Positions 2,177 to 30,279 are shown, counted from the stretch's first letter. The stretch: 32,000 nt of DNA from Fastidiosibacter lacustris (GCF_003428155.1 NZ_QLIR01000010.1:30001-62000), one strand, 5' to 3'. A program made the numbers and translations. The notes: a model not told the origin generated them from the sequence alone.

Positions 2177-2509
2177 TTATAACAAAGCATCAATTTTTGC
2201 TGCACAAATAAAGTCATTTTCTGTTAACCCATCCACTGAATGGGTTGTAAAATGGATAATACAACGATTAAAACTAACTTCCATATCAGGGTGATGCCCT
2301 TCATTGTTAGCAATCCAAGCCACTGCATTAACAAATGACATGGTTCTATAAAAACCCTTAAACTCAAATGTACACGTAATTTTTTTACCACATGGACTTA
2401 ATTGCCATTTTGGTAAGTTAATAAGATATTGCTTTGCCTCTTTCTGATTTAAAGGCACTAAATCGCCATACTCACAAACTTGGCATTTCTTATCTAATAA
2501 ATTTTCCAT
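2177..2509 (-). CDS. phhB: Pterin-4a-carbinolamine dehydratase
   Basis: 110 aa. Motif EGHHPDMEVSFNRCIIHFTTHSVDGLTENDF is typical of PCD/DCoH. Lies immediately downstream of phhA. Confidence 0.9.
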   Translation of the reverse strand: MENLLDKKCQVCEYGDLVPLNQKEAKQYLINLPKWQLSPCGKKITCTFEFKGFYRTMSFVNAVAWIANNEGHHPDMEVSFNRCIIHFTTHSVDGLTENDFICAAKIDALL

Positions 2510-2575
2510 TTTTTATCCTCAAACTATTTAATGGCTCATTGCTTTTGTGTTTTCAGCATTACTGATTCTTCATCT

Positions 2576-3355
2576 TTATTTATATAAAGGTTCAAATTCA
2601 GGTAAGCTCTGTGATTTTACAATAAGTTTAATAAAATCACCTTTAAGCACGTTATAAATACTCTCATAAGAATTAATCACATAATACAACGGTTGATAAA
2701 TATCGATTCTATAAGGTGTTCTTAAAATGTTAAGCGCATCAAATTTTTCATAACGCACCATAGGATCCTCCAATGCATACACTGTCTCCCCAATCGAAGA
2801 TAAAATCCCTCCACCATAACAGCGAAGTCCTTTTTTAGTATTGATGAGCCCAAACTCAATGGTAAACCAATAAAAACGCGCTAAAAGTCTTTGAATGTCA
2901 TGAGGCTGCCCAATGCCTAATTGCCCATAACGCTGCATAAACTCAGCATACACAGGATGAGTTAACATCGGACAATGACCAAATAACTCATGAAAAATAT
3001 CAGGTTCTTGTATGTAAGTTAGTTCTTCTGGTATACGGATAAAAGTTGCGCAAGGGAATTTACGCTCTGATAAAAGTTTGAAAAAACGATCAAAACCAAT
3101 TAACGCAGGCACGGGTTCAACCTGCCAACCAGTTTCTTTCTTTAAACGTAAATTAAGATCAGGAATCTGTGGGATTCGATCACGTGAAAATGATAAAATT
3201 TCTAAGCCTTGTAAATATTCCTCACAGGCACGCGAAGCTACAATTTTAAATTGGCGCTCAATCAAAGCATGCCATGTGTTATTTTCAACCTCATCATAAC
3301 AAACAAAACCATTATGATCTGGTTTTTTAGAAACATACTTACTTTGCATTTTCAT
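2576..3355 (-). CDS. phhA: Phenylalanine 4-hydroxylase
   Basis: 259 aa. Iron-ligand region PDIFHELFGHCPML and TIEFGL are typical of bacterial aromatic amino-acid hydroxylases. The start overlaps the fahA 3' end by 17 nt. Confidence 0.9.
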   Translation of the reverse strand: MKMQSKYVSKKPDHNGFVCYDEVENNTWHALIERQFKIVASRACEEYLQGLEILSFSRDRIPQIPDLNLRLKKETGWQVEPVPALIGFDRFFKLLSERKFPCATFIRIPEELTYIQEPDIFHELFGHCPMLTHPVYAEFMQRYGQLGIGQPHDIQRLLARFYWFTIEFGLINTKKGLRCYGGGILSSIGETVYALEDPMVRYEKFDALNILRTPYRIDIYQPLYYVINSYESIYNVLKGDFIKLIVKSQSLPEFEPLYK

Positions 3356-4676
3356 CTACTGTCTTCCTTTGCACATTTCCCTCTTTAAATTTAGTTGACA
3401 TACTGACAATTTCCCCTAAAACTTCACCAAAGCCTATTTTATAACCTTGTCCTTGACAGAAACCACTGATTATTGCGATATCACCATCTTGTAGGAAAAT
3501 ACGTGTTTCACCTGTTTTAAGTTGAAGTGGGTTTTTACCCCCTTCCGTTAGCTCAATTAAACTACCAAAACTATCTTTTTCTTTACCGCTAATCGTACCA
3601 GATGCTAACAAATCACCTGTTGCCATCGGACAACCATTAACCGTGTGATGAGCAAGTTGTTGCATCATATCCCAATACATATATTTAAAGTTTGTCCTTG
3701 AAACAATCTGTGCTGTTTGCGACTTTGGTGTTTTAATCGCAAATTGAAGGTTAATATTGATACCCCAGTCTTCACTTCGTTTAAGGTAACCTAATAACTT
3801 TAGTTCTTCTTTGGGTGAAGGCACTCGAAATGGCTCAAGTGCATCTAAAGTCACTATCCAAGGAGAAATTGAGGTTGCAAAATTTTTCGCTAAAAATGGA
3901 CCTAGTGGCACATATTCCCATTTTTGAATATCGCGTGCACTCCAGTCATTGACAAGCACCATCCCAACGATATGTTCAGGTGCATTTTTAATGTCTATTA
4001 CTTGTCCATGTTTAGATGACAAGCCAATGATTGCACCCATTTCAATTTCAACATCCAGAGCCTGGGATGCACTAAAAATAGGTGGTTCATTTGAACTAGG
4101 CTTAATTTGACCATTTGGGCGTTGAATCATTGTACCACTTACAACAACGCTCCCCGCTCGCCCATCGTATCCAACAGGTAAGTGCAACCAGTTTGGTAGT
4201 AAAGGATTATCTTTATCACGAAACATGCGCCCAATGTTTTCAGCATGCTCACGTGAGGAATAAAAATCAGTATAACCCTTAATTTCTATCGGTAGATACA
4301 ATTTTGCATTGCTTTGCTTGATAAGGACTTTTTTCTGAAGGACTACATCATCACGCAAGGTTGATGTGTTTTTATTTAAAAGGTGACTAACTACTTCACG
4401 CAAAGTGCGCACTTTACTACGCCCATGCTCAATAAGTGGATTCAAGTTATTAAGTTGACTAAAATTTAATCCAAAATCTGGGAGCAGTTTACATTCATAA
4501 GCTGCCTTAAGGTCAAGGATATAATCTCCAATTGCAACACCAATACGTCTTCTAGAGAAATCCTCCTCTATGTCACTAAAAACACCCAATGGCAAGTTCT
4601 GAATTGGGAAATGACTATCTTTATCCACTTTAATAAAGGATTGAAGCTTAGGATCATTTGCTTTAATTTCTAACAT
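3339..4676 (-). CDS. fahA: Fumarylacetoacetase
   Basis: 445 aa, with length and conserved blocks (FPIQNLPLGVF, YTDFYSS, VNDWSARDIQKWEY) typical of FAH. The ATG shares one base with the hmgA stop (TAATG at 4674-4678). Confidence 0.9.
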   Translation of the reverse strand: MLEIKANDPKLQSFIKVDKDSHFPIQNLPLGVFSDIEEDFSRRRIGVAIGDYILDLKAAYECKLLPDFGLNFSQLNNLNPLIEHGRSKVRTLREVVSHLLNKNTSTLRDDVVLQKKVLIKQSNAKLYLPIEIKGYTDFYSSREHAENIGRMFRDKDNPLLPNWLHLPVGYDGRAGSVVVSGTMIQRPNGQIKPSSNEPPIFSASQALDVEIEMGAIIGLSSKHGQVIDIKNAPEHIVGMVLVNDWSARDIQKWEYVPLGPFLAKNFATSISPWIVTLDALEPFRVPSPKEELKLLGYLKRSEDWGININLQFAIKTPKSQTAQIVSRTNFKYMYWDMMQQLAHHTVNGCPMATGDLLASGTISGKEKDSFGSLIELTEGGKNPLQLKTGETRIFLQDGDIAIISGFCQGQGYKIGFGEVLGEIVSMSTKFKEGNVQRKTVDENAK

Positions 4677-5971
4677 TACTCTAAAACCTCACAATTAAAC
4701 TGTGCTCTTAATTCTGACCAACATGATAAATAATTACTTTGCAATAAATCCGTGGCTAAAGCGAACTCAGTTAAGCGCCATGCTAAACGTGTTTCAAACA
4801 TAAATGCCATCGTATTTTGATAACGAACGGGCTTTAGTTTAGCATTTGAAGCTTGAGTAAAAGTATTATAATCAGGGCCATGTGCTGACATCGGATTATG
4901 AAGGCTAAGCCCACCCGGTTGAAATCCTTCCCCTTTTGCATCATATTGCCCCGTTAATAACCCCATACACTCAGCCATAATGTTACGGTGATAATAAGGT
5001 GGTCTAAAGGTATCTTCACCAACAACCCAGCGTGGCGGAAAAATAACAAAATCAACATTTGCTGTACCCATTTGATAGGAAGGTACACTAAGAACAGTAA
5101 AAATGCTTGGATCTGCATGATCTTTAAGTACGGTATTAACTGGACAAAACAAATCTAAGTCATACTTATAAGGATATAAATTGCCATGCCATGCAATAAC
5201 ATCTAAAGGTGAATGCTTTATTTTCCCTTGCCATAATCTACCTTGATATTGACTATAAAGTGTGAAATCACCTGTTTTATGTTCAAAATTTGCACACGGC
5301 GCTAGAAAATGACGCTCCTCTGCCAAACCATTGGCACCGATTGGTCCTCTTTCTGGCAAATAAAAACTCGCAGTATTGGATTCACAAATATAACCACGAG
5401 CATTACTGTCAATAAGCTCAATTTGATAGCGTATGCCTCTTGGAATAACGACCACCTCATGAGGTTTTGCATCAATAACCCCAAACTCTGTTTTAAAGCG
5501 TAAGTGTCCTTGCTGTAATACGTATAACCAGTCACCATCTGCACTATAAAAATAACAATTCTCCATCGACGCATTGATCGCATATAGGTGAACTGCTGCC
5601 ACCTCGTTAAACATCATGGTCACCAAACCTTCAACAAGATGAGTTGGTTTATTAGGAATATCGATTGCACGCCAACGTATTTGCTCAGGTGGAGTCAATA
5701 TTTTATCTTGAAAAAAATTATTCCTCAATAAGCTGCTATTCACAAGGCTAAATTTAGGACTATGTAAAACCGATGGTCGAATACGATATTGCCATGCTTT
5801 AAAATTTTGTGCCCTTGGTGCTGTGAAAGCACTATTGTTAATTTGTTCAGTATATAGTCCAAGTGGTGCAATTTGAGGTGAATTACGATCTTGTGGTAAA
5901 GCACCTTTTACTGCCTCAGTTGCAAAATAGCTATGGAAACCAGATTGATAATGATGTGTATTCATTTTCAT
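4676..5971 (-). CDS. hmgA: Homogentisate 1,2-dioxygenase
   Basis: 431 aa. N-terminus YQSGFHSYFATEAVKGALP and PPYYHRN...MAECMG blocks are typical of HGD. Confidence 0.95.
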   Translation of the reverse strand: MKMNTHHYQSGFHSYFATEAVKGALPQDRNSPQIAPLGLYTEQINNSAFTAPRAQNFKAWQYRIRPSVLHSPKFSLVNSSLLRNNFFQDKILTPPEQIRWRAIDIPNKPTHLVEGLVTMMFNEVAAVHLYAINASMENCYFYSADGDWLYVLQQGHLRFKTEFGVIDAKPHEVVVIPRGIRYQIELIDSNARGYICESNTASFYLPERGPIGANGLAEERHFLAPCANFEHKTGDFTLYSQYQGRLWQGKIKHSPLDVIAWHGNLYPYKYDLDLFCPVNTVLKDHADPSIFTVLSVPSYQMGTANVDFVIFPPRWVVGEDTFRPPYYHRNIMAECMGLLTGQYDAKGEGFQPGGLSLHNPMSAHGPDYNTFTQASNAKLKPVRYQNTMAFMFETRLAWRLTEFALATDLLQSNYLSCWSELRAQFNCEVLE

Positions 5972-6009
5972 ATCTCTTTAATTAATTTATAACAACATAA
6001 TTTAATTAT

Positions 6010-6657
6010 CTATTCATGTTCGATGGCAACAACACTTTCAGGTGATGCTGCTATAAAAGCAGGATGTGTCATTGCCATATAATAAATGCGATTAATAATC
6101 GGAAATGCACTTATCTCCTCCACATTAAAACGTTTAGCATTATAAACTTGTGGAATTAAACAAATATCGGCCAGCGTAATATCATCACCAAAACAGTATT
6201 TTCCAGCTGACTTTTTAAGCTTCTCTTCTAAGGCATGAAAGCCTGATATAATCCAATGCGCATACCATTTCTGAGCTTTTTCCTCACTGATGGCAAATGT
6301 TTCTTTTAGATACTTAATCACACTAGAATTATTAAGTGGATGAATATCGCAAGCAATGGTTAACGCAAATGCTTTTACTTGTGCTTTAACGATAGGATCT
6401 ATTGGATAAATTCCATCTTGTGGGTATTTATCTTCCAAGTAGTCAATAATCGCCAAAGATTGGGTAATCACAACATTGCCATCTTTTAAACTTGGCACGC
6501 GAGATTGTGGATTAATCGTTTTATACTCAATAGAAAATTGCTCACCGCCGTTATTAAGTAAATGAATTTGTTTTGTTTGATAATTTAGTTTTTTAAGCTG
6601 TAATACAATACGTACACGAAAACTTGCCGAGGAACGAAAATAATCATATAAAATCAT
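6010..6657 (-). CDS. maiA: Maleylacetoacetate isomerase (zeta-class GST)
   Basis: 215 aa. N-terminal LYDYFRSSASFRVRI matches the zeta-class SSxSxRVRI signature. Sits between hppD and hmgA. Confidence 0.85.
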   Translation of the reverse strand: MILYDYFRSSASFRVRIVLQLKKLNYQTKQIHLLNNGGEQFSIEYKTINPQSRVPSLKDGNVVITQSLAIIDYLEDKYPQDGIYPIDPIVKAQVKAFALTIACDIHPLNNSSVIKYLKETFAISEEKAQKWYAHWIISGFHALEEKLKKSAGKYCFGDDITLADICLIPQVYNAKRFNVEEISAFPIINRIYYMAMTHPAFIAASPESVVAIEHE

Positions 6658-6666
6658 CTTTAACTC

Positions 6667-7749
6667 CTATTTATGCATTTGCTCACTTAGTACACCACGC
6701 TCAATTTGATCTAGCTCAATCGAGTCAAACAAAGCTTGAAAGTTTCCTTCACCAAAACCATCATCGCCTTTTCTTTGAATGATTTCAAAAAACACAGGAC
6801 CAATCACAGTGTTTGTAAAAATTTGCAATAAATAACCACCATCTTTAGTTGATGCACCATCTATTAAGATCCGATTTTTTCTCATCCGATCTACTGATTC
6901 AGGATGATAGGGTAAGCGCGCATGAGTTTTGGTGTAATATGTATCAGGCGTGTGCATAAACTCTAAACCTAAACCGCGTAAACGCTCCACCGTATCAAAA
7001 ATATCTTTACTCTCTAGTGCGATATGTTGAATGCCTTCACCATTATATTCATGTAAAAACTCTTCAATTTGCGAACGATCATCTGCTGATTCATTGATTG
7101 GAATTTTAATTTTTAAACAAGGACTTGTCATCGCTCTACTATATAATCCTGTTAATTTCCCTTCTATATCAAAGTAGCGAATCTGTCTAAAATTAAACAA
7201 ATCGATATAATACTGTGCCCATTTATCCATGTTACCGCGATATACATTGTGAGTAAGATGATCAATATACAATAAACCACATTCATTTTGCTTCATCCGT
7301 GCATCAGCACCAGCAATGCACTTAAATAAACCACTATCTAAAATTGAATCATAATGAGTTAAGTAAAGCTTAGTATCGGCAATGCCACAAATAACTTCTA
7401 TACTATCACCGTTCCAATCATCGACGTTTTTTTCCTTAACTTTGGCGCCTTTTTTGATACAATGCACTAGTGCCTTTTCAACGTTTTCTACCTTAAAACC
7501 CATCCCACAGGCACCAGCCTTATGTGTATTTTTAAATGTTTTAGCAAACCCTTTATCTTCGCTATTGAGCAAAAAGAATATATCGTTTTGCTGCCATAGC
7601 TCAATAGTTTTATTTTTATGATTGGCAACATGCGTAAAACCGATTAGTTTAAATAGGTCACGAATCTTTTGCGGTGCATTACTAACGTATTCTAAAAAAC
7701 TAAAGCCTTTGGTACCGACTGGATTAGCTAAAACCTCCATTGATTCCAT
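6667..7749 (-). CDS. hppD: 4-hydroxyphenylpyruvate dioxygenase
   Basis: 360 aa. Blocks GIQHIAL, YLLQIFT and FFEIIQRKG...GFGEGNFQALFDSIE are typical of HPPD. First gene of the catabolic cluster. Confidence 0.9.
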   Translation of the reverse strand: MESMEVLANPVGTKGFSFLEYVSNAPQKIRDLFKLIGFTHVANHKNKTIELWQQNDIFFLLNSEDKGFAKTFKNTHKAGACGMGFKVENVEKALVHCIKKGAKVKEKNVDDWNGDSIEVICGIADTKLYLTHYDSILDSGLFKCIAGADARMKQNECGLLYIDHLTHNVYRGNMDKWAQYYIDLFNFRQIRYFDIEGKLTGLYSRAMTSPCLKIKIPINESADDRSQIEEFLHEYNGEGIQHIALESKDIFDTVERLRGLGLEFMHTPDTYYTKTHARLPYHPESVDRMRKNRILIDGASTKDGGYLLQIFTNTVIGPVFFEIIQRKGDDGFGEGNFQALFDSIELDQIERGVLSEQMHK

Positions 7750-22715: not shown

Positions 22716-23135
22716 ATGATCTGGCAAAACATAAAACTCAGTATCAAAAGTATTCTTGTTGCCAGTATGATTTTACTTATTATAGGCTGTGCTACAACTG
22801 CAAAATACAGGGCCATTTTAGATCAATGGCATGAACAGTCTATTGATGATTTTGTTCACATGTGGGGTTATCCAAATAATACACTTAAACTTGAGGATAA
22901 TAAGACAGCTTATGTCTATAGTGACAAACAAATTGTCAGTACCCCTCTTAACCAAATGCCAACAAATATTACAACTGTTCAAAATGGAAATAATACAACC
23001 ATAATTTCAACACCTGGTGCGATTATTGGAGGTCAAACCTATTCCTTATCCTGTACAACGTGGATTGTATTTGATAACAAAACAAAAAAAATTGTCAATA
23101 CAACCTTTCGAGGTAATAACTGTATTGCTTATTAA
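22716..23135 (+). CDS. Small lipoprotein of unknown function
   Basis: 139 aa. Signal peptide ends in the lipobox LIIGC. GGGAGA Shine-Dalgarno lies 5 nt upstream of the ATG. It occupies the position after mnmG where rsmG often sits. Confidence 0.6.
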   Translation: MIWQNIKLSIKSILVASMILLIIGCATTAKYRAILDQWHEQSIDDFVHMWGYPNNTLKLEDNKTAYVYSDKQIVSTPLNQMPTNITTVQNGNNTTIISTPGAIIGGQTYSLSCTTWIVFDNKTKKIVNTTFRGNNCIAY

Positions 23136-24199: not shown

Positions 24200-24549
24200 T
24201 CTTTGGTTTTTTTAATGAGGGAGCTCTGTCTTCGTGTACAGAGTAGCTTAACATATGACTGTGTTATAATTTATAGTTGTAACGTATTTGTCACATATTT
24301 TATAAAATGTACAAACTATCAAATCAGAAATGAACTTGCTGTGGAAATTGGTTATTGTAAAAAAAGTCATTTAAACAATAACGTATCTGCCGCCCTGTCC
24401 AATCCTTTACTCGCACTCAGACACGTTTTTAAGTACGCCCCTATTCAATTAAAAGCACTTGAATTTTAACGTATAGACAACCTGTTTTTATTGAGCAAGA
24501 AAACTAGAGAACGAGATAAAATAAGACTAATCCCATCGTGGTGATTCTC

Positions 24550-26748
24550 TTAAAACCCACTTTCTTTGACCCATAAAATAAGGATTTGTTGCCATAAACT
24601 TGCAGCTAAAGACTTTCTTGCAATATTAATAAAGACTTTACCTCGAATGACGTGGGACAAATTATATTGAGGTGAAGCCGTTGGCTTTAATAATAAAAGG
24701 AAAATGCTTTCCTGAGGAGTCAGTTTTCCTTCATTGTCAGGCTTTACTGCAATGCTACCACCAAAGATTGAAGCGTGATATGTGCTAAGAGGAACTGCTT
24801 TATGAATATAGCTAAGGTTAGCCTTATTTTGATTTTGTGACAGTAATAGACTTGCATGGGAGCTTATGATTTGCGTAATAATCACAGGAGTTTTAGTAAA
24901 ATCGATGTTTTCAGGTACGAAATATCCGCTTTGATTATTGGTGAGTTTATCGTATTTTTTGGTATCGATATAAGCATGAAGTTGAATTTGATCTTTATTG
25001 ACAAGCATCATTAGTGCTTGTTTGGCTTTTAGCCATGCTCCAATTTGTAAATCTTCAGATAATGACTCTACAACCCCATCGAATGGTGCATAAAAGTACA
25101 ATTTTTCCTGTTCTTTTTGTAATTGATTAAGCTCTGTTTGAGTTTGACTGATTTGAGTCATAAGAACTTGTTGTTGTTCAAGCTGAGTTTGAAAATGGAC
25201 GATATTACGTTGTTGCCACTTAAGTTGTATAAGCTTTTGTTTAGTTTGTACAATTTTAAAATTTAACTTATCAGATTCTAGAACTGCTAAAAGCTCACCT
25301 TTCTTGATTGTTTGTCCTTTTTTAACGTATATATTGACGACTTTTGCACCTATCTCAGTGTAGAGGGTTTGTGTTTGATATGACATGGTAGCAGGTAAGG
25401 AAATTTGGCTTTGCCAAGGGGTGAAAAAAATCAATATGAGTAACAATAGGATAGAAGTTAAAATAATAGTATGCTTATTAAGTTTAATTCTGCTTTTAAT
25501 GGTCCACCAAACCTTTAATTCACGATAAATAGGATGTAAGATAAAATAAATGATTTCAATTGCAAAAAGGATAATCCCTAGTGCTTTAAAAAATAGGTGA
25601 TAAACCATTAAAGCAATACCAAAAAATAGAAAAAAACGATAAATCCAATTTAGAATTGCATAAGTGATGAGGATGTGTTGCCTAGAGATATTAAAATATT
25701 CTGGCATCGGTGCATTTAGTCCAAAGAGTATTTCTCTGATTTTCCATCTTGTTAGAGCAAAACTTCTGGTTTGAAGGTTTCGCATACTCAAAATATCAGA
25801 TAGAACATGATAGCCATCAAACCTTAAAAAAGGACTGATATTGATCAAATAGGTTGTCATTAAGCTATATGTTGCAAGAAAGAAACAGATACTTTTAAGT
25901 GCGCCTTCTGGAAATAGAAGCCATGCCCACAAAGCAAAAATAGCTATATAAGTTTCTGTAATAACGCCAGCTAGTGCAATCGTAATACGTTCTTTCGGGT
26001 CGTTGACTTTCCAGCTTTCCCCTGTGTCAGTGTAAAGCATAGGGAACATAACAAGAAAGGCAACTCCCATTACAGGCACGTTAAGAGCAAATTTTTTACA
26101 CATTAAAGCATGACCTAGTTCATGGCAGCTTTTGGCAAAAATTAACGCAATGGCATAAAGTAAAATATATTCAATTGAAAATAAAGCAAAAAAAGTATTG
26201 GTAAACTGATCCCATTCGCGCAAAGTAAAGATAAGTGCAAATATTCCAAGAAATGTCATGATAAAAGCAAACGTTTTACCAAGCATAAAGCGAAAATAAG
26301 GATAGATTCTATCTAAAAACTTATTAGGTTTAACAAGTGGAACTCGAAAGAATAAATAATTTTTAACAAGCCATAAAAACCAGTTACTCTTTTTAAGAGA
26401 TTGAATTTTATTGATACTTTTTAATATGGGGTAGTTTTGCTCAATTAGGCAGTTTTGTGATAAAAACTTAAGCATTTGACTTAAATCTTCTTCAGAAATT
26501 TGTGCTAAGGATTTACTTTTTATATCTTTAATAAACTCAGCAGGTGGGACGCTTTGCCAATAGTGTAAAATTTCATGTTCTTTCCAACCTAAATGAAAAA
26601 AGCGATTATTTAATGTGTCTTGAACAATCCAAGTTGGGCTGTTATTAAAATCCATACCTCCTTTCTCTAAGGTAACTCCTAAGCGAAGGGGTGGAAGTAT
26701 TTCTGGTAGTTCTGTCATATTTTGCATTTGCATAGTGTTACCACCCAA
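24550..26748 (-). CDS. Three-part fusion protein. It has an N-terminal soluble domain, a polytopic M50 (site-2-protease-like) zinc metalloprotease core, and a C-terminal HlyD-type periplasmic adaptor domain.
   Basis: 732 aa. HELGH at 26110-26124 lies in a hydrophobic helix. The second S2P motif NISPFLRFDG is at 25813-25842. There are several hydrophobic helices up to about residue 445. Then comes a lipoyl-like hairpin (GAKVVNIYVKKGQTIKKGELLAVLESD), a Q-rich coiled coil and YAPFDGVV, as in membrane-fusion proteins. The track start is TTG 26748; the ATG at 26733 lies 4 nt after the upstream stop. Confidence 0.8.
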   Translation of the reverse strand: MGGNTMQMQNMTELPEILPPLRLGVTLEKGGMDFNNSPTWIVQDTLNNRFFHLGWKEHEILHYWQSVPPAEFIKDIKSKSLAQISEEDLSQMLKFLSQNCLIEQNYPILKSINKIQSLKKSNWFLWLVKNYLFFRVPLVKPNKFLDRIYPYFRFMLGKTFAFIMTFLGIFALIFTLREWDQFTNTFFALFSIEYILLYAIALIFAKSCHELGHALMCKKFALNVPVMGVAFLVMFPMLYTDTGESWKVNDPKERITIALAGVITETYIAIFALWAWLLFPEGALKSICFFLATYSLMTTYLINISPFLRFDGYHVLSDILSMRNLQTRSFALTRWKIREILFGLNAPMPEYFNISRQHILITYAILNWIYRFFLFFGIALMVYHLFFKALGIILFAIEIIYFILHPIYRELKVWWTIKSRIKLNKHTIILTSILLLLILIFFTPWQSQISLPATMSYQTQTLYTEIGAKVVNIYVKKGQTIKKGELLAVLESDKLNFKIVQTKQKLIQLKWQQRNIVHFQTQLEQQQVLMTQISQTQTELNQLQKEQEKLYFYAPFDGVVESLSEDLQIGAWLKAKQALMMLVNKDQIQLHAYIDTKKYDKLTNNQSGYFVPENIDFTKTPVIITQIISSHASLLLSQNQNKANLSYIHKAVPLSTYHASIFGGSIAVKPDNEGKLTPQESIFLLLLKPTASPQYNLSHVIRGKVFINIARKSLAASLWQQILILWVKESGF

Positions 26749-28078
26749 AGAATTGTCTTAGCGTTGTGATCGGTTTTCTAAATAAGTAATAGAATAAACT
26801 TACATTTTCCCCCATCAACTTGGCGGTTCCTTGACTACCAATTTTAGGAAGTGATTGATTGGAATCAAGGTAAGCAATGACTTGATAAGCAAGCACTTGA
26901 GAAGGTGTAATAGTAGCTTCGAAACTTGAATATTCAATTATGCCATAAACAGGGTTAAGTGGATCAGCATTTAAAAATAGCTTAACTTTATCACCCTTTT
27001 GAAAGTTAATTGCATCAGATACAGGTAACCAAATTTCGATTTCGATTTGATTAGGAATAGCAACTTGCATAACGTTTTCACCCGTGACAACTGGTTTACC
27101 AATCCATTGATTGGGAGTGTCAATAATAGCGATACCATCTATTGTGCTTCTTACATAAGATTCTTCAATCAAATGACGCGTATAATTAACCTCTAATGCT
27201 TTTTCTTGCATTTGAGCTTGTAAAACTTGAATTTCAGCACGTTTTTCTATGTCCTGGTAACTACTTTGAACAGCTGTTTTGTATTTTGCTGTTGCAGTGG
27301 CAAGTTCTTTTTGAGCAAGCTCATTAGCATTGACTAAATCACGCTTATCCATATCAAACAAAATTTCGCCTCTACGCACATATTGCTCAGGCATGACAGC
27401 AATATTTTCAATTACGCCTTCCATTGGTACAGTAATAATTGCAGGATCCTTGGCAATAATAGAAGCAGGTGCTAAAACGCTTTGTGGTACACGAATGAAC
27501 ATAGCACTCAGAATGATAACAATGAACAACCAAACAAGGCGTCTTCGTTTGCTTTTGAAGTAATATTTAATTCTGCCCAACAAGCCATTTGGTTTGCTTA
27601 AGTGTGACCATGCTTGATTGTATGAAAGAGAAATCCAATCGAATTGTTTTAGTTCATTTTCATTTAACATATCTGGGTTTAATAGAATGACCCCACCAAT
27701 AATATCTTTATTAAGGTTGCGAAAGAAATAGATATGAGCATACTTTGCAAGTGGTTCAAGCCATCTTGTTGCAACAGCTTCTGCTACATCATCAATATTT
27801 AGAATCAGTAGATCTTTACTTTGATCATAATGGGTAATAATTTTGCTAATAAATTGATTAGCTGAAATTTGATAAGGACTGGTACCGTTGAGTTGGGTGA
27901 TACCTGAGACACTCAAAATTTTTATGTTTTTATTTTGCCAAGAACTCCACACAATAGCACGTTGATATTCAGCAACAAGTTTGGTTTGGTGCGCGATAAA
28001 AAAAGCAAGTTCATTTAAAGTGTGGATTTCACGCATTTCTTGTTGTAAAGAGAGTAAATTAGCTAATACATCTTTCAT
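26738..28078 (-). CDS. HlyD-type membrane-fusion/adaptor protein with a roughly 180-aa cytoplasmic N-terminal domain
   Basis: 446 aa. A single TM (LVWLFIVIILSAMFI, residues about 181-196) follows a KSKRRR stop-transfer. The periplasmic part has a lipoyl hairpin (MEGVIENIAVMPEQYVRRGEILFDMD), a coiled coil, VRSTIDGIA and beta-barrel-like repeats. Confidence 0.75.
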   Translation of the reverse strand: MKDVLANLLSLQQEMREIHTLNELAFFIAHQTKLVAEYQRAIVWSSWQNKNIKILSVSGITQLNGTSPYQISANQFISKIITHYDQSKDLLILNIDDVAEAVATRWLEPLAKYAHIYFFRNLNKDIIGGVILLNPDMLNENELKQFDWISLSYNQAWSHLSKPNGLLGRIKYYFKSKRRRLVWLFIVIILSAMFIRVPQSVLAPASIIAKDPAIITVPMEGVIENIAVMPEQYVRRGEILFDMDKRDLVNANELAQKELATATAKYKTAVQSSYQDIEKRAEIQVLQAQMQEKALEVNYTRHLIEESYVRSTIDGIAIIDTPNQWIGKPVVTGENVMQVAIPNQIEIEIWLPVSDAINFQKGDKVKLFLNADPLNPVYGIIEYSSFEATITPSQVLAYQVIAYLDSNQSLPKIGSQGTAKLMGENVSLFYYLFRKPITTLRQFFGW

Positions 28079-28080
28079 TT

Positions 28081-28878
28081 TTAACCCTCTTTTCTATCAG
28101 TCACTTTATTTATTTTAAAATGAGCAATTCCACTCATACCTGAGAAAAGCATATCCGTGTTGAGAGTGGATGATTCATCATTTTTAACAAGTTTGCCATA
28201 AACTAAAATTGATTGGCTTGCTGGATCTATTTGACTAACAATTTTAATAACTTGACCAGTAAGTTTTATATTAGGTAGCTCCTCTAACATTAAACTAAAG
28301 TTCGTCCCAATATGAATTTTGCTTAACCATGAAGACGGTATGTACATTTTGACTTCAAGCTCTCGATTATCAACGATTTCAAGCAATGGATCATCTGTTT
28401 TAACCATTTCATTTTCTTGAGCGGATTGATGAACGACTTCACCGTTATAAGGTGCAATAATTTGGCATTGACGTTGCTGGAATAAAATGATATCGAGGTC
28501 GGCTTTAGCAATCTCAGACTGACTTTTTGCTTTTGCCAAATCCATTTTACTGGCTGAGTTTAGACGCATAAGTTCAGTTGTACTTTGTAATAAAGCATCA
28601 GCCGCCTCAAGCTCAGCGCGAGCACGTAGCATTTTGAGGTCAATTTCTTCACAATCAAATTGTAAAAGTACCTCTCCTTTTTTAAAGACATCTCCTGGTC
28701 GAAAATAAATTTTTTGAATAGTCCCTGTCATTGGACTAGAAAGAGAAGCTTTGTTAATTGGGAAAACAGAGGCATATGTGCTTTGTTCGCCGGCATCGGT
28801 AAGTTGTTGAAAAGGGGTTATGCCATAAGAAAAACTAAGCAACATAAACAAGGAGATAAATAAACTGCATGATTTCAT
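28081..28878 (-). CDS. Secreted or anchored HlyD-type periplasmic adaptor protein (short form)
   Basis: 265 aa. N-terminal signal/anchor is MKSCSLFISLFMLLSFSYG. Has a lipoyl hairpin (MTGTIQKIYFRPGDVFKKGEVLLQFD), a coiled coil and IIAPYNGEV. AAGGAAG Shine-Dalgarno lies 8 nt upstream. First gene of the operon. Confidence 0.8.
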   Translation of the reverse strand: MKSCSLFISLFMLLSFSYGITPFQQLTDAGEQSTYASVFPINKASLSSPMTGTIQKIYFRPGDVFKKGEVLLQFDCEEIDLKMLRARAELEAADALLQSTTELMRLNSASKMDLAKAKSQSEIAKADLDIILFQQRQCQIIAPYNGEVVHQSAQENEMVKTDDPLLEIVDNRELEVKMYIPSSWLSKIHIGTNFSLMLEELPNIKLTGQVIKIVSQIDPASQSILVYGKLVKNDESSTLNTDMLFSGMSGIAHFKINKVTDRKEG

Positions 28879-29089
28879 AATCGTGACTTCCTTTTATTTG
28901 AGGCAGTTTTAATATGATTATTAGTTTAGATCAGCGTTTTTATTTGTACAATAGAAAATAACTTTTTGTTATGTAAGTATTTAGCGATAATCATACATAT
29001 AGGCGCATATTTAATACGTTTTTCTCTTAAGATGGAGTATGCTAGTATGAGTTCTAACAAATGTCGATAATGCAAAATAAGGATAAATA

Positions 29090-29533
29090 ATGCAAGTTAA
29101 AGGTTTCAGTTTAGCAACACGTGTCATTCATATGATTGGCTTTGAAATATTTGCTATTGTTATTTTCGCACCTTTAGCTGCTTTTATATTAGATAAGGGA
29201 ATAATAGAAATAGGTGCTTTAGGCATATTCACTTCGCTTATTGCTATGTTTTGGAACTTTATTTATAACTGGGTGTTTGACGTTTGGGAAGTGCGACTTG
29301 GCAAGGATAGGTTTAACCGTAGCGTGATAACAAGATGTATACATGTATTATTGTTTGAATTAGGTCTTTTTATTGTCACCATTCCACTTGTTGCATTTTG
29401 GTTAGATATGACACTTTTGCAAGCGTTTTTAATTGATATTGCTTTTGTGGCTTTCTTTTTAATCTATGCTTTTGTTTATAACTGGATATTCGATCTTCTA
29501 TACTTAAAACTTGTACGCAAAGTAAGCATTTAA
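29090..29533 (+). CDS. PACE-family (AceI-like, bacterial transmembrane pair) efflux protein
   Basis: 147 aa with two tandem BTP repeats. The repeats read RVIHMIGFEIFAI...WNFIYNWVFD and RCIHVLLFELGLF...YAFVYNWIFD, each including the conserved TM glutamate. Confidence 0.8.
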   Translation: MQVKGFSLATRVIHMIGFEIFAIVIFAPLAAFILDKGIIEIGALGIFTSLIAMFWNFIYNWVFDVWEVRLGKDRFNRSVITRCIHVLLFELGLFIVTIPLVAFWLDMTLLQAFLIDIAFVAFFLIYAFVYNWIFDLLYLKLVRKVSI

Positions 29534-29610: not shown

Positions 29611-30279
29611 ATGATGCGAATTTTAGTTGTAGAAGACGATATTATGTTAGGTGAAGGAATAGTTGAAGGCTTAAAGCAGCATAACTACGCTGTAGATTTG
29701 ATGCAAGATGGGAAAATGGCAGAAATGGCATTAGATACTGAACCGTATGATGCAGTTGTTATGGATATTGGCTTACCTTTTAAAGATGGCATTTCGATTG
29801 TAAAAAGCATACGTGCTAAGGGAAACTCAGTTCCAGTTTTACTATTAACCGCGCGTGATGCAATCGATGATCGTGTGCGTGGATTAGATTCAGGCGCTGA
29901 TGATTATTTAACAAAACCCTTTGATTTATCAGAGCTTTTAGCAAGAATGCGTGCATTGGTACGTCGTTCAGCTGGACGGAGCGATCCTAAAATTAAGTTT
30001 GAAGAGTTAGAGCTTGATCCTGCAGCACAAACTGTAACAGTAAGCGGTGAGTTTGTAAAACTTTCAAGAAGAGAATTTGCGTTACTTGAATGCTTGTTAG
30101 AAAATACAGGAAAGGTGGTTTCTAAAACGAAGTTGCTTGAAAAATTATATGGTTGGGATGAAGAAGTAGATTCTAATACCCTAGAAGTACATATTCATAA
30201 TGTACGTAAGAAAATTCAGAATAAATATATAAAAACGTTACGAGGCGTTGGTTATATTGTACAAAAACCAACAGCATAA
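29611..30279 (+). CDS. Canonical OmpR/PhoB-family response regulator (QseB/PmrA-like)
   Basis: 222 aa. Has ILVVEDD, VVMDIGLP, LLLTAR, ADDYLTKPF and the winged helix LSRREFALLECLL...LEVHIHNVRKK...TLRGVGY. No kinase gene follows. Confidence 0.9.
   Translation: MMRILVVEDDIMLGEGIVEGLKQHNYAVDLMQDGKMAEMALDTEPYDAVVMDIGLPFKDGISIVKSIRAKGNSVPVLLLTARDAIDDRVRGLDSGADDYLTKPFDLSELLARMRALVRRSAGRSDPKIKFEELELDPAAQTVTVSGEFVKLSRREFALLECLLENTGKVVSKTKLLEKLYGWDEEVDSNTLEVHIHNVRKKIQNKYIKTLRGVGYIVQKPTA

Follow-up and report, generated by a model that had tools for sequence, protein, structure and literature searches.

A widespread operon of HlyD-type adaptors and an RRE-M50 protease, and its association with giant LEPR/DUF4347 proteins

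Introduction

What might three periplasmic adaptor proteins do when no pump is encoded beside them? The question is raised by an operon of three genes, here called A, B, and C, on the minus strand at positions 24550-28878 of a 32-kb stretch of DNA from Fastidiosibacter lacustris (GCF_003428155.1, NZ_QLIR01000010.1:30001-62000; 32,000 nucleotides, hereafter the window). An initial annotation had described the products as three HlyD-type adaptors, the last fused to an M50 protease, and had proposed that the protease core takes the place of the pump in a device that matures and releases a peptide or protein. Here, the operon is followed into its homologs, where its neighbors point to a different kind of cargo. 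We lean, with modest confidence, toward the view that the trio supplies the core, in the inner membrane and periplasm, of a widespread TolC-dependent, envelope-spanning machine for giant surface proteins of the LEPR/DUF4347 type, in which the RiPP recognition element (RRE) domain of C would capture a leader, the M50 domain would cleave it, and a tube of adaptors would export or display the cargo.

Distribution and conserved neighborhood

The family is large. Searches with C return over 2,085 matches in a 90%-identity database. With clustering at 50% identity, 2,808 representatives match at E<=1e-30, the best 150 of which are nearly all end-to-end matches of about 700 to 730 residues. A scan of one genome per species found more than 590 loci with a C homolog. 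The best 80 of these were used for neighborhood analysis, with sub-counts restricted to loci with enough flanking DNA, and they come from alpha-, beta-, gamma-, delta-, and zeta-proteobacteria, from Nitrospirota including Ca. Nitrospira defluvii, from Scalindua, and from SAR11 single-cell genomes. The closest named relatives of the window trio are in Cysteiniphilum, Facilibium, and Fangia. The trio is widespread and not a local oddity.

When A, B, and C of the window are used as queries, the order A-B-C on a single strand recurs in 55 of the 67 homologous loci with enough upstream DNA, and most of the 80 have an A ortholog in the corresponding place. This arrangement is far beyond chance. Clustering of all neighboring open reading frames (ORFs) adds just two conserved partners, a TolC-family gene and a giant ORF. 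The former encodes a lipoprotein of about 520 residues (Pfam OEP, 1e-22 to 1e-30) and immediately precedes A in 45 of the 57 loci with enough DNA, that of Fangia among them. The earlier statement that no outer-membrane factor adjoins the operon is correct for the window, but it does not extend to the family.

The lack of a pump, by comparison, holds well beyond the window. No ABC, RND, or MFS pump is a conserved neighbor among the 80 loci, and homologous trios are not encoded beside pumps; ORFs resembling ABC ATPases, with Walker A and LSGGQ motifs, occur in only 9 of the 80 and at variable positions. Three further neighbor clusters were set aside, two (c3 and c5) as antisense artifacts in high-GC genomes and one (c4) as generic ABC ATPases in variable positions. 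Also missing among the 80 loci is any conserved small ORF family or peptide-modifying enzyme such as a radical SAM protein, YcaO, or lanthionine synthetase, and no such enzyme is encoded in the window. The co-occurring small precursor that the initial annotation had suggested looking for did not appear.

Individual relatives show the full arrangement and its reduction. In Fangia hongkongensis, the order is OEP-A-B-C-giant, with the giant protein starting "...ERLEPRYMYDGA". A 61%-identical relative has OEP-A-B-C with no giant gene nearby, and a 56%-identical relative (GCA_044375175.1) has the trio only, with no TolC gene adjacent and with B split in the annotation into ORFs of 222 and 228 residues (L087 8655-9997), perhaps through a frameshift or because the system is decaying in this lineage. 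Other orders are also seen. Some beta-proteobacteria have A, giant, B, C (L049 650-2518, L059 47-820), and a few loci without an adjacent A-type gene have giant, B, C (order variants in L029, L062, and L079). Several loci carry one to three small genes of about 170 to 225 residues directly downstream of C (L088 16128-18235; cluster c14 in L048, L067, L073, and L077), which are annotated "tail fiber protein" in a Kosakonia plasmid.

The five genes also travel together on plasmids. Escherichia coli IncF plasmids and one from Kosakonia (NZ_CP107078.1; L088 3280-16094) carry the complete cassette with insertion sequences on both sides, and plasmids of Citrobacter, Hafnia, and Kosakonia bear it as well; among complete E. 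coli genomes, it is found in 24 of 5,426. On the IncF plasmid NZ_CP104683.1 (L089 1-18082, L090), it comprises a giant Ig-like/DUF4347 protein, a TolC-family protein, and three adaptor-type proteins, where ISKpn26 precedes the giant gene by about 0.5 kb and IS1B follows C at a distance of about 150 bp. The annotation of these plasmid genes goes no further than "Ig-like domain-containing protein," "TolC family protein," and "HlyD family...".

Domain structure of the three proteins

C combines three domains in one chain. It exceeds the Pfam cut-offs for Peptidase_M50 (PF02163, 31.0 bits against 27.2), HlyD_D23 (37 against 30, spanning residues 447-606), HlyD_3 (34.3 against 22.2), and Biotin_lipoyl (26.2 against 22.1), and its adaptor part matches MacA, EmrA, ZneB, and HlyD in PDB profile searches. 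The two M50 signature motifs, HELGH and NISPFLRFDG, are where the initial annotation had placed them (Table 1), and their key residues H204, E205, H208, N298, P301, D306, and G307 are invariant in alignments of C homologs. An AlphaFold2 model of residues 1-445 has a mean predicted local distance difference test (pLDDT) score of 81.8. In this model, HELGH (204-208) lies inside a helix spanning 187-214; HExxH is in the second transmembrane helix, and NxxPxxxxDG is at the end of the fourth. Foldseek matches the model to the Methanocaldococcus jannaschii site-2 protease (3b4r, E=8e-4, probability 1.0). No PDZ or CBS domain is present in C. At codon 15 (26689-26691), the window encodes Pro (ILPPLR), where a near-identical database representative (P0001) has Ser (ILPSLR).

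The N-terminal domain of C was overlooked in the initial annotation. Its model consists of strands 20-27, 33-39, and 44-48 followed by helices 50-57, 64-74, and 81-93, and Foldseek relates the C model to leader-bound TbiB1 (5v1v, target TM 0.66, probability 1.0) and to the RRE of CteB (5wgg, 5why). PqqD (PF05402) is the sole recurrent Pfam family in the homologous N-domains, with weak matches in 8 of 70 and a best E-value of 0.006; a PDB sequence-profile search with the RRE domain gave nothing significant. The best NCBIfam match of C is daptide_HExxH (NF041824, E=7.6e-39), which covers residues 36-400 including the N-terminal domain and places the protease, by sequence, in the M50 subfamily that processes ribosomal peptides. 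At 133.9 bits, the score is far under the curated cut-off of 300, and the C protease is by this measure a relative of the daptide-type M50 protease and not a member of that equivalog. The odd number of membrane helices in the model suggests that the RRE is cytoplasmic and the adaptor periplasmic, and the M50 active site would then lie at the cytoplasmic face of the membrane.

A and B are adaptors on their own. A matches Pfam HlyD_3 (3e-17) and HlyD_D23 (8e-16), reaches 112.5 bits with TIGR01730 RND_mfp (cut-off 94.9), and begins with the signal-like hydrophobic segment MKSCSLFISLFMLLSFSYG. B matches HlyD_D23 (1e-9) and HlyD_3 (2e-9), and both families score above their curated cut-offs in all three proteins, bearing out the earlier view that each is of the membrane-fusion type. 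Biotin_lipoyl is above its cut-off in A and C and Biotin_lipoyl_2 below it in both; the Pfam search gave no lipoyl-family match in B. The AlphaFold2 model of B (pLDDT 89.3) has hairpin helices at 246-272 and 277-306 and a barrel, and its best folds in Foldseek are MacA (3fpp, 2e-16) followed by MexA, AcrA, and EmrA. Its C-terminal tail, LFYYLFR(K/R)P...RQ..G, is conserved in homolog alignments. Among the best PDB sequence matches of B is 6vej, a TriA-TriB fusion; the PDB sequence-profile searches otherwise return only generic adaptors, plus MjS2P and RseP around HExxH. The adaptor bodies of all three proteins would be periplasmic, that of A by its signal-like N-terminus, that of B by the helix at 177-192, and that of C by its position after the last of about seven transmembrane helices. 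Every domain named by the initial annotation is supported by these profile searches, and its inventory falls short in the RRE of C and the probable GAF domain of B.

The N-terminal domain of B is GAF-like in its homologs. Of 32 homologous N-domains, 9 give a match to Pfam GAF (best 2.7e-7) and 7 to GAF_2, and precomputed GAF families are present on three homologs (P0182, P0192, and P0213). The B model has alpha/beta secondary structure compatible with GAF; GAF folds are not among its top 50 Foldseek matches, a list dominated by adaptors, and a PDB sequence-profile search with the domain found nothing significant. The probable GAF-like identity of the window's B is drawn from homology by alignment.

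Giant LEPR/DUF4347 proteins as probable cargo

The second conserved partner is a giant ORF of 1,000 to over 4,000 residues, mostly cut by the locus edge at about 2,000 residues, in which DUF4347 is followed by Ig-like, cadherin-like, or beta-propeller repeats. A giant gene, an LEPR-bearing gene, or both are present in 42 of the 51 loci of >=15 kb. In all 26 loci where it is visible, the N-terminus has the same plan: a short basic stretch, the near-invariant motif L-E-(P/Q)-R-x-(M/L)-(F/L)-D-(G/A)-A, a variable linker, and DUF4347. The conserved partner is a giant protein, and no small precursor ORF or modifying enzyme accompanies the trio; the cargo is therefore probably a giant, adhesin-like surface protein and not a peptide, as judged from sequence and gene order. 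On this point, the choice of peptide or protein left by the initial annotation would fall to a protein with an LEPRxMFDGA and DUF4347 N-terminus.

The other end of these proteins differs from that of classical type I substrates. Among 40 neighboring giant ORFs, 36 lack any GGxGxD repeat of the RTX type, and one only has any in its last 400 residues. A tail motif, x-L-x-x-Q-(L/F), is found in 25 of the 40 at a distance of 16-50 residues from the C-terminus, as against 2.6% of interior windows, and could serve as another recognition signal. In giants upstream of OEP (L010-L077, e.g., L030 228-6308), it is often preceded by G-(K/R). DUF4347 itself contains the near-invariant pair "sHG..G.l.LG" and "D.l.YGC....G" and then "AAS.D.TG...GGdW.LE" (e.g., L030 ~680-1130, L082 12600-13100, L090 314-913). 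The His...Cys spacing may resemble that of a catalytic dyad of clan-CD type (caspase or CHAT-like), which would presumably suggest self-processing.

A sister architecture with a SecA-like ATPase

Working backwards from a DUF4347 protein led to a sister cluster, and a metagenome scan with its SecA-like protein gave 51 loci. The gene order is GAF-adaptor, RRE-M50-HlyD, truncated SecA-like ATPase, second adaptor, and giant DUF4347 protein (L093 1767-11023; L094-L144, e.g., L096 3881-16872), the last of these beginning "...ELEPRVLLSAD". The SecA-like protein has about 663 residues and consists of NBD1, PPXD, and NBD2 only, with matches to SecA_DEAD (3e-92), the preprotein cross-linking domain (2e-23), and P-loop_SecA. 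Its gene immediately follows the M50-HlyD gene in 44 of the 51 metagenomic loci. The GAF-adaptor gene is present in 28 of 51 and the adaptor gene in 37 of 51, usually just downstream, and LEPR/DUF4347 genes are seen where the DNA extends far enough. A TolC-family gene was not found in the sister loci with a hidden Markov model built from window-type loci, and, conversely, the 80 window-type loci are without a SecA-like gene.

That a homologous cluster has its own dedicated preprotein-translocation ATPase is the strongest indirect indication of protein transport by these systems. The lack of a motor is thus not universal for the system family. By analogy, the sister gene makes housekeeping SecA a candidate motor for the window-type system.

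Proposed mechanism and its weak points

In the mechanism that we favor, the cytoplasmic RRE of C would capture the N-terminal leader of the cargo, that is, the basic stretch and LEPRxMFDGA, as RREs bind the leaders of RiPPs, peptides that are made by the ribosome and modified after translation. The M50 active site at the cytoplasmic membrane face would then cleave the captured leader. The periplasmic domains of A, B, and C would form one mixed adaptor tube, for which TriAB is a precedent, and dock on the TolC-family channel, through which the cargo would leave the cell or be displayed. The putative GAF domain of B may gate the machine in response to a small ligand. Both the binding of the LEPR leader and its cleavage are proposed, and export of the cargo, as opposed to mere anchoring or release, is likewise something we infer.

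A bolder version has a fair, though less than even, chance of being right. Here, A, B, C, and the TolC-family channel would together constitute an unrecognized, ABC-transporter-independent class of protein secretion in thousands of species, ranging from SAR11 and Nitrospira to the plasmids of E. coli, with RRE-M50 as receptor and leader peptidase, a three-adaptor tube, a truncated SecA motor in one branch, and giant adhesin-like cargo exported N-terminus first. For now, the system is best called a tripartite TolC-adaptor type with an unprecedented inner-membrane component; the name "new secretion system" would be deserved if export is demonstrated.

Several observations weigh against the proposed machine. 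The link between the trio and the giant proteins is guilt by association. Neither a TolC nor a giant gene lies beside the trio in the window, in Cysteiniphilum halobium (L001), or in relative P0011, and the window contains no giant gene anywhere and no LEPR-like motif in any frame. A homolog search with the Fangia LEPR/DUF4347 N-terminus gave short fragments only, none of them from the Cysteiniphilum clade. If they exist, the TolC and cargo genes of this genome are unlinked to the trio and must lie elsewhere. At the level of domains, the window's own C N-domain has no Pfam match to PqqD and its own B N-domain none to GAF. For two cyanobacterial DUF4347 proteins that have no LEPR motif, the surrounding 10 kb contain no cassette of this kind, and the association is therefore with LEPR-type DUF4347 and not with DUF4347 as such. 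The window-type cassette encodes no energy source, and M50 proteases are not known to conduct proteins. A modest precedent exists in the M50 protease EpeP, which is thought to both cleave and export its peptide (PMC10885120). Finally, some LEPR-XLL giant proteins have C-terminal RTX domains (PMC10868602); these may use classical type I secretion, with the trio acting only on the N-terminus for anchoring or release.

Alternative explanations

The last point leads to the best surviving alternative, in which the giant is exported otherwise, e.g., by a type I system, and the LEPR/DUF4347 module is held at A-B-C-TolC until the GAF-controlled M50 protease cleaves it, as LapG and LapD act on LapA. 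Such a release, anchoring, or quality-control device would make good use of a putative sensory GAF domain on B, of the conserved elements at the N-terminus of the giants, and of a cassette without a motor; the RTX C-termini of some LEPR-XLL proteins and the conserved tail motif, if it is a separate secretion signal, also fit. We nevertheless consider it unlikely. The five genes form a self-contained cassette on plasmids, flanked by insertion sequences and without an ABC transporter, the neighboring giants almost entirely lack RTX repeats, and the sister clade encodes a translocation ATPase within the cluster. The predicted topology, with both RRE and M50 site cytoplasmic, would suit recognition before export over release in the periplasm.

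An improbable reading, close to that of the initial annotation, is that the trio is a maturation and export system for a small ribosomal peptide of RiPP or bacteriocin-like type, the M50 domain removing the leader and the adaptors guiding the product to a channel in the outer membrane. Such an RRE fold is typical of RiPP pathways, and the nearest named RRE-M50 relatives are indeed RiPP proteases (daptide_HExxH at 7.6e-39, mpaP matches on Streptomyces plasmids, EpeP/YydH, and TglG), but the daptide model scores 134 against a cut-off of 300, neither the 80 loci nor the window supply a precursor family or modification enzyme, and the neighbor that is conserved is a giant protein with a leader-like N-terminus.

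Quite improbable, too, is a role of the three proteins as ordinary efflux or secretion adaptors for an ABC, RND, or MFS transporter encoded elsewhere, with the M50 domain an accessory fused by chance or for regulation. A does reach the RND_mfp cut-off, adaptors commonly work with an unlinked TolC, and paired adaptors are known in TriABC (6vej). Pump genes almost always adjoin those of their adaptors, however, whereas several hundred loci across phyla keep three adaptors and an outer-membrane factor with no pump; the RRE-M50 fusion is full length in about 2,800 clusters, and B and C have cytoplasmic domains of their own, which is unusual among pump adaptors.

That C is a site-2 protease acting on a membrane-bound regulator, in one circuit with the flanking response regulators, is barely credible: M50 enzymes such as RseP and SpoIVFB do act in signaling and two OmpR-type regulators flank the operon, but these are not conserved beside the trio in relatives, no anti-sigma or sigma genes and no PDZ or CBS domain are present, and three adaptors and a TolC protein would be left unexplained.

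The operon and its surroundings

The packing of the three genes is as initially described (Table 1). A and B are separated by 2 nucleotides (28079-28080), and the junction of B and C is either an 11-nucleotide overlap or a 4-nucleotide gap, depending on whether C starts at a TTG at 26748 (ORF 24550-26748, 732 residues) or at the ATG at 26733. The ATG is the likely start because the resulting 727 residues agree with the length of full-length homologs (700-740 residues). Compared with Cysteiniphilum, the ratio of nonsynonymous to synonymous substitution rates (dN/dS) of the trio is 0.10-0.14, at saturated dS, indicating purifying selection. With the genes intact and the catalytic residues conserved, the operon is therefore not a decaying remnant. 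One promoter-like site lies between A and the divergent PACE gene, but a scan for operon promoters and terminators gave site counts no different from those in shuffled sequence, and the operon promoter is for that reason not established.

Table 1. Features of the operon and of neighboring genes in the 32-kb window
Feature	Position	Strand	Description	Evidence
Gene A	28081-28878	-	265-residue exported HlyD/RND-type membrane-fusion (periplasmic adaptor) protein	ORF map, profile matches
Gene B	26738-28078	-	446 residues: GAF-like domain, one membrane helix, periplasmic adaptor	Profiles, AlphaFold2, Foldseek
GAF-like N-terminal cytoplasmic domain of B	27596-28078	-	Residues ~1-161 (predicted)	GAF matches of homologs, model
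Transmembrane helix of B (single)	27503-27550	-	Residues 177-192 (predicted)	AlphaFold2 helix and hydrophobic stretch LVWLFIVIILSAMFI
Gene C	24550-26733	-	727-residue fusion of RRE, M50 intramembrane metalloprotease, and HlyD-type adaptor	Profiles, homologs
RRE of C (PqqD-like, cytoplasmic)	26446-26685	-	Residues ~17-96 (predicted)	AlphaFold2, Foldseek, PqqD matches of homologs
Polytopic M50 (site-2-protease) core of C	25414-26358	-	Residues ~126-440; ~7 transmembrane helices and re-entrant beta-hairpin	
HELGH zinc-binding/catalytic motif of C	26110-26124	-	H204, E205, H208	Translation
NISPFLRFDG second M50 signature of C	25813-25842	-	N298, P301, D306, G307	Translation
HlyD-type periplasmic adaptor of C	24553-25395	-	Residues ~447-727, conserved end ...ESGF	Pfam, PDB profiles
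Intergenic region between A and divergent PACE gene	28879-29089	.	211 bp; presumed operon promoter region	ORF map
Promoter-like site	29067-29039	-	Single site in the A-PACE intergenic region	
PACE-family transporter gene	29090-29533		BTP, chlorhexidine-efflux type; divergent from operon	
Response regulator gene	29611-30279		OmpR type; next to PACE gene	
Phenylalanine/tyrosine degradation cluster	2177-7749	-	Complete cluster	

The whole window encodes no pump, ABC ATPase, or outer-membrane factor, with OEP/TolC scanned in every frame. The trio is flanked, as the initial annotation had reported, by a PACE/BTP transporter gene and OmpR-type response regulator genes. The pairing of PACE and response regulator is not kept beside the trio in relatives, and the flanking regulators were ruled out as parts of the system on the same ground. 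Two small ORFs were considered as small cargo and rejected: an 88-residue ORF (24203-24469) looks spurious, and a 139-residue ORF (22716-23135) encodes a lipoprotein without a family. The remainder of the window is housekeeping, with genes for Phe/Tyr catabolism, Psd, TatD, RuvB, MnmG, and TrkA. The Phe/Tyr cluster encodes pterin-4a-carbinolamine dehydratase, a biopterin-dependent hydroxylase, fumarylacetoacetase, homogentisate dioxygenase, a GST-type (maleylacetoacetate isomerase-like) protein, and HPPD.

Implications

No published description or solved structure of this system was found in the full-text literature and the PDB, a search that most subscription-journal papers fall outside, and in the literature found, DUF4347 and LEPR-XLL occur as annotation labels only. 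A function already assigned to the family, which would have explained its architecture, was not among the results; there is a small but appreciable chance that the system has been described elsewhere.

If the proposed machine is real, tripartite TolC-adaptor assemblies are not confined to ABC, RND, or MFS engines, and such an assembly could have a leader-recognizing intramembrane protease at its base. RRE domains would extend from small-peptide biosynthesis to protein secretion. The machine would also explain how giant LEPR-XLL/DUF4347 surface proteins are processed and exported, a very large class with members in abundant environmental bacteria such as SAR11, Nitrospira, methanotrophs, and Azospirillum. 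It raises the question of what powers the process, for which the SecA-like sister gene is a concrete lead. Since the whole cassette is present on E. coli IncF plasmids, the question is directly testable in a model organism.

Comparison with known systems

A close parallel is type I secretion of giant adhesins (LapBCE-LapA, SiiCDF-SiiE, and HlyBD-TolC), where, as in most homologous trio loci, an HlyD adaptor and a TolC-family factor accompany a giant repetitive surface protein and the assembly is presumed to span the envelope. Type I systems have an ABC transporter as ATPase, which the trio cassette lacks, and one adaptor instead of three paralogs. Their substrates carry a C-terminal RTX signal, whereas the trio's giants carry an N-terminal LEPR and DUF4347 signature, and the inner-membrane position is held in the trio by the RRE-M50 protease. 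More generally, HlyD/membrane-fusion proteins have a cognate ABC, RND, or MFS transporter gene alongside, which is absent for the trio in the window and, apart from the few ABC-like ORFs, in the homologous loci (9/80). A device like that of LapG and LapD fits the putative GAF sensor of B and the N-terminal motif of the giants; it fits worse with the cytoplasmic RRE and active site, the plasmid cassette, and the SecA-like variant.

A mixed adaptor tube has a precedent in TriABC-OpmH, where different adaptor paralogs join in one hetero-oligomeric tube. That system has two adaptors and the RND pump TriC, while the trio has three paralogs, two of them with cytoplasmic domains, and no pump.

As a protease, C by sequence belongs to the same M50 subfamily as the membrane-embedded RiPP peptidases (EpeP/YydH of Bacillus subtilis, TglG/TmoG, and the daptide protease MpaP). 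These lack a periplasmic adaptor domain, have short peptides as substrates, and are encoded in biosynthetic gene clusters, unlike C, which is fused to an HlyD domain and linked to TolC and giant proteins. With the site-2 proteases RseP, SpoIVFB, and MjS2P, C shares HExxH and NxxPxxxxDG in transmembrane helices and a fold like 3b4r. It differs from them in lacking PDZ and CBS domains, in its N-terminal RRE and C-terminal adaptor, and in a context that resembles secretion and not signaling.

The proposed coupling of N-terminal leader recognition and cleavage to export by the same inner-membrane protein is a concept shared with the peptidase-containing ABC transporters (PCATs, e.g., PCAT1 and ComA). 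These rely on a C39 cysteine peptidase and an ABC motor for small peptides, where the trio has an RRE and an M50 metalloprotease, no ABC domain, and a probable giant cargo. The sister architecture, for its part, recalls the accessory Sec system (SecA2/SecY2) for giant serine-rich adhesins in placing a dedicated SecA paralog beside a giant adhesin-like cargo gene. It does so without SecY2 and the Asp proteins, and its SecA-like protein is truncated and absent from the window-type cassette.

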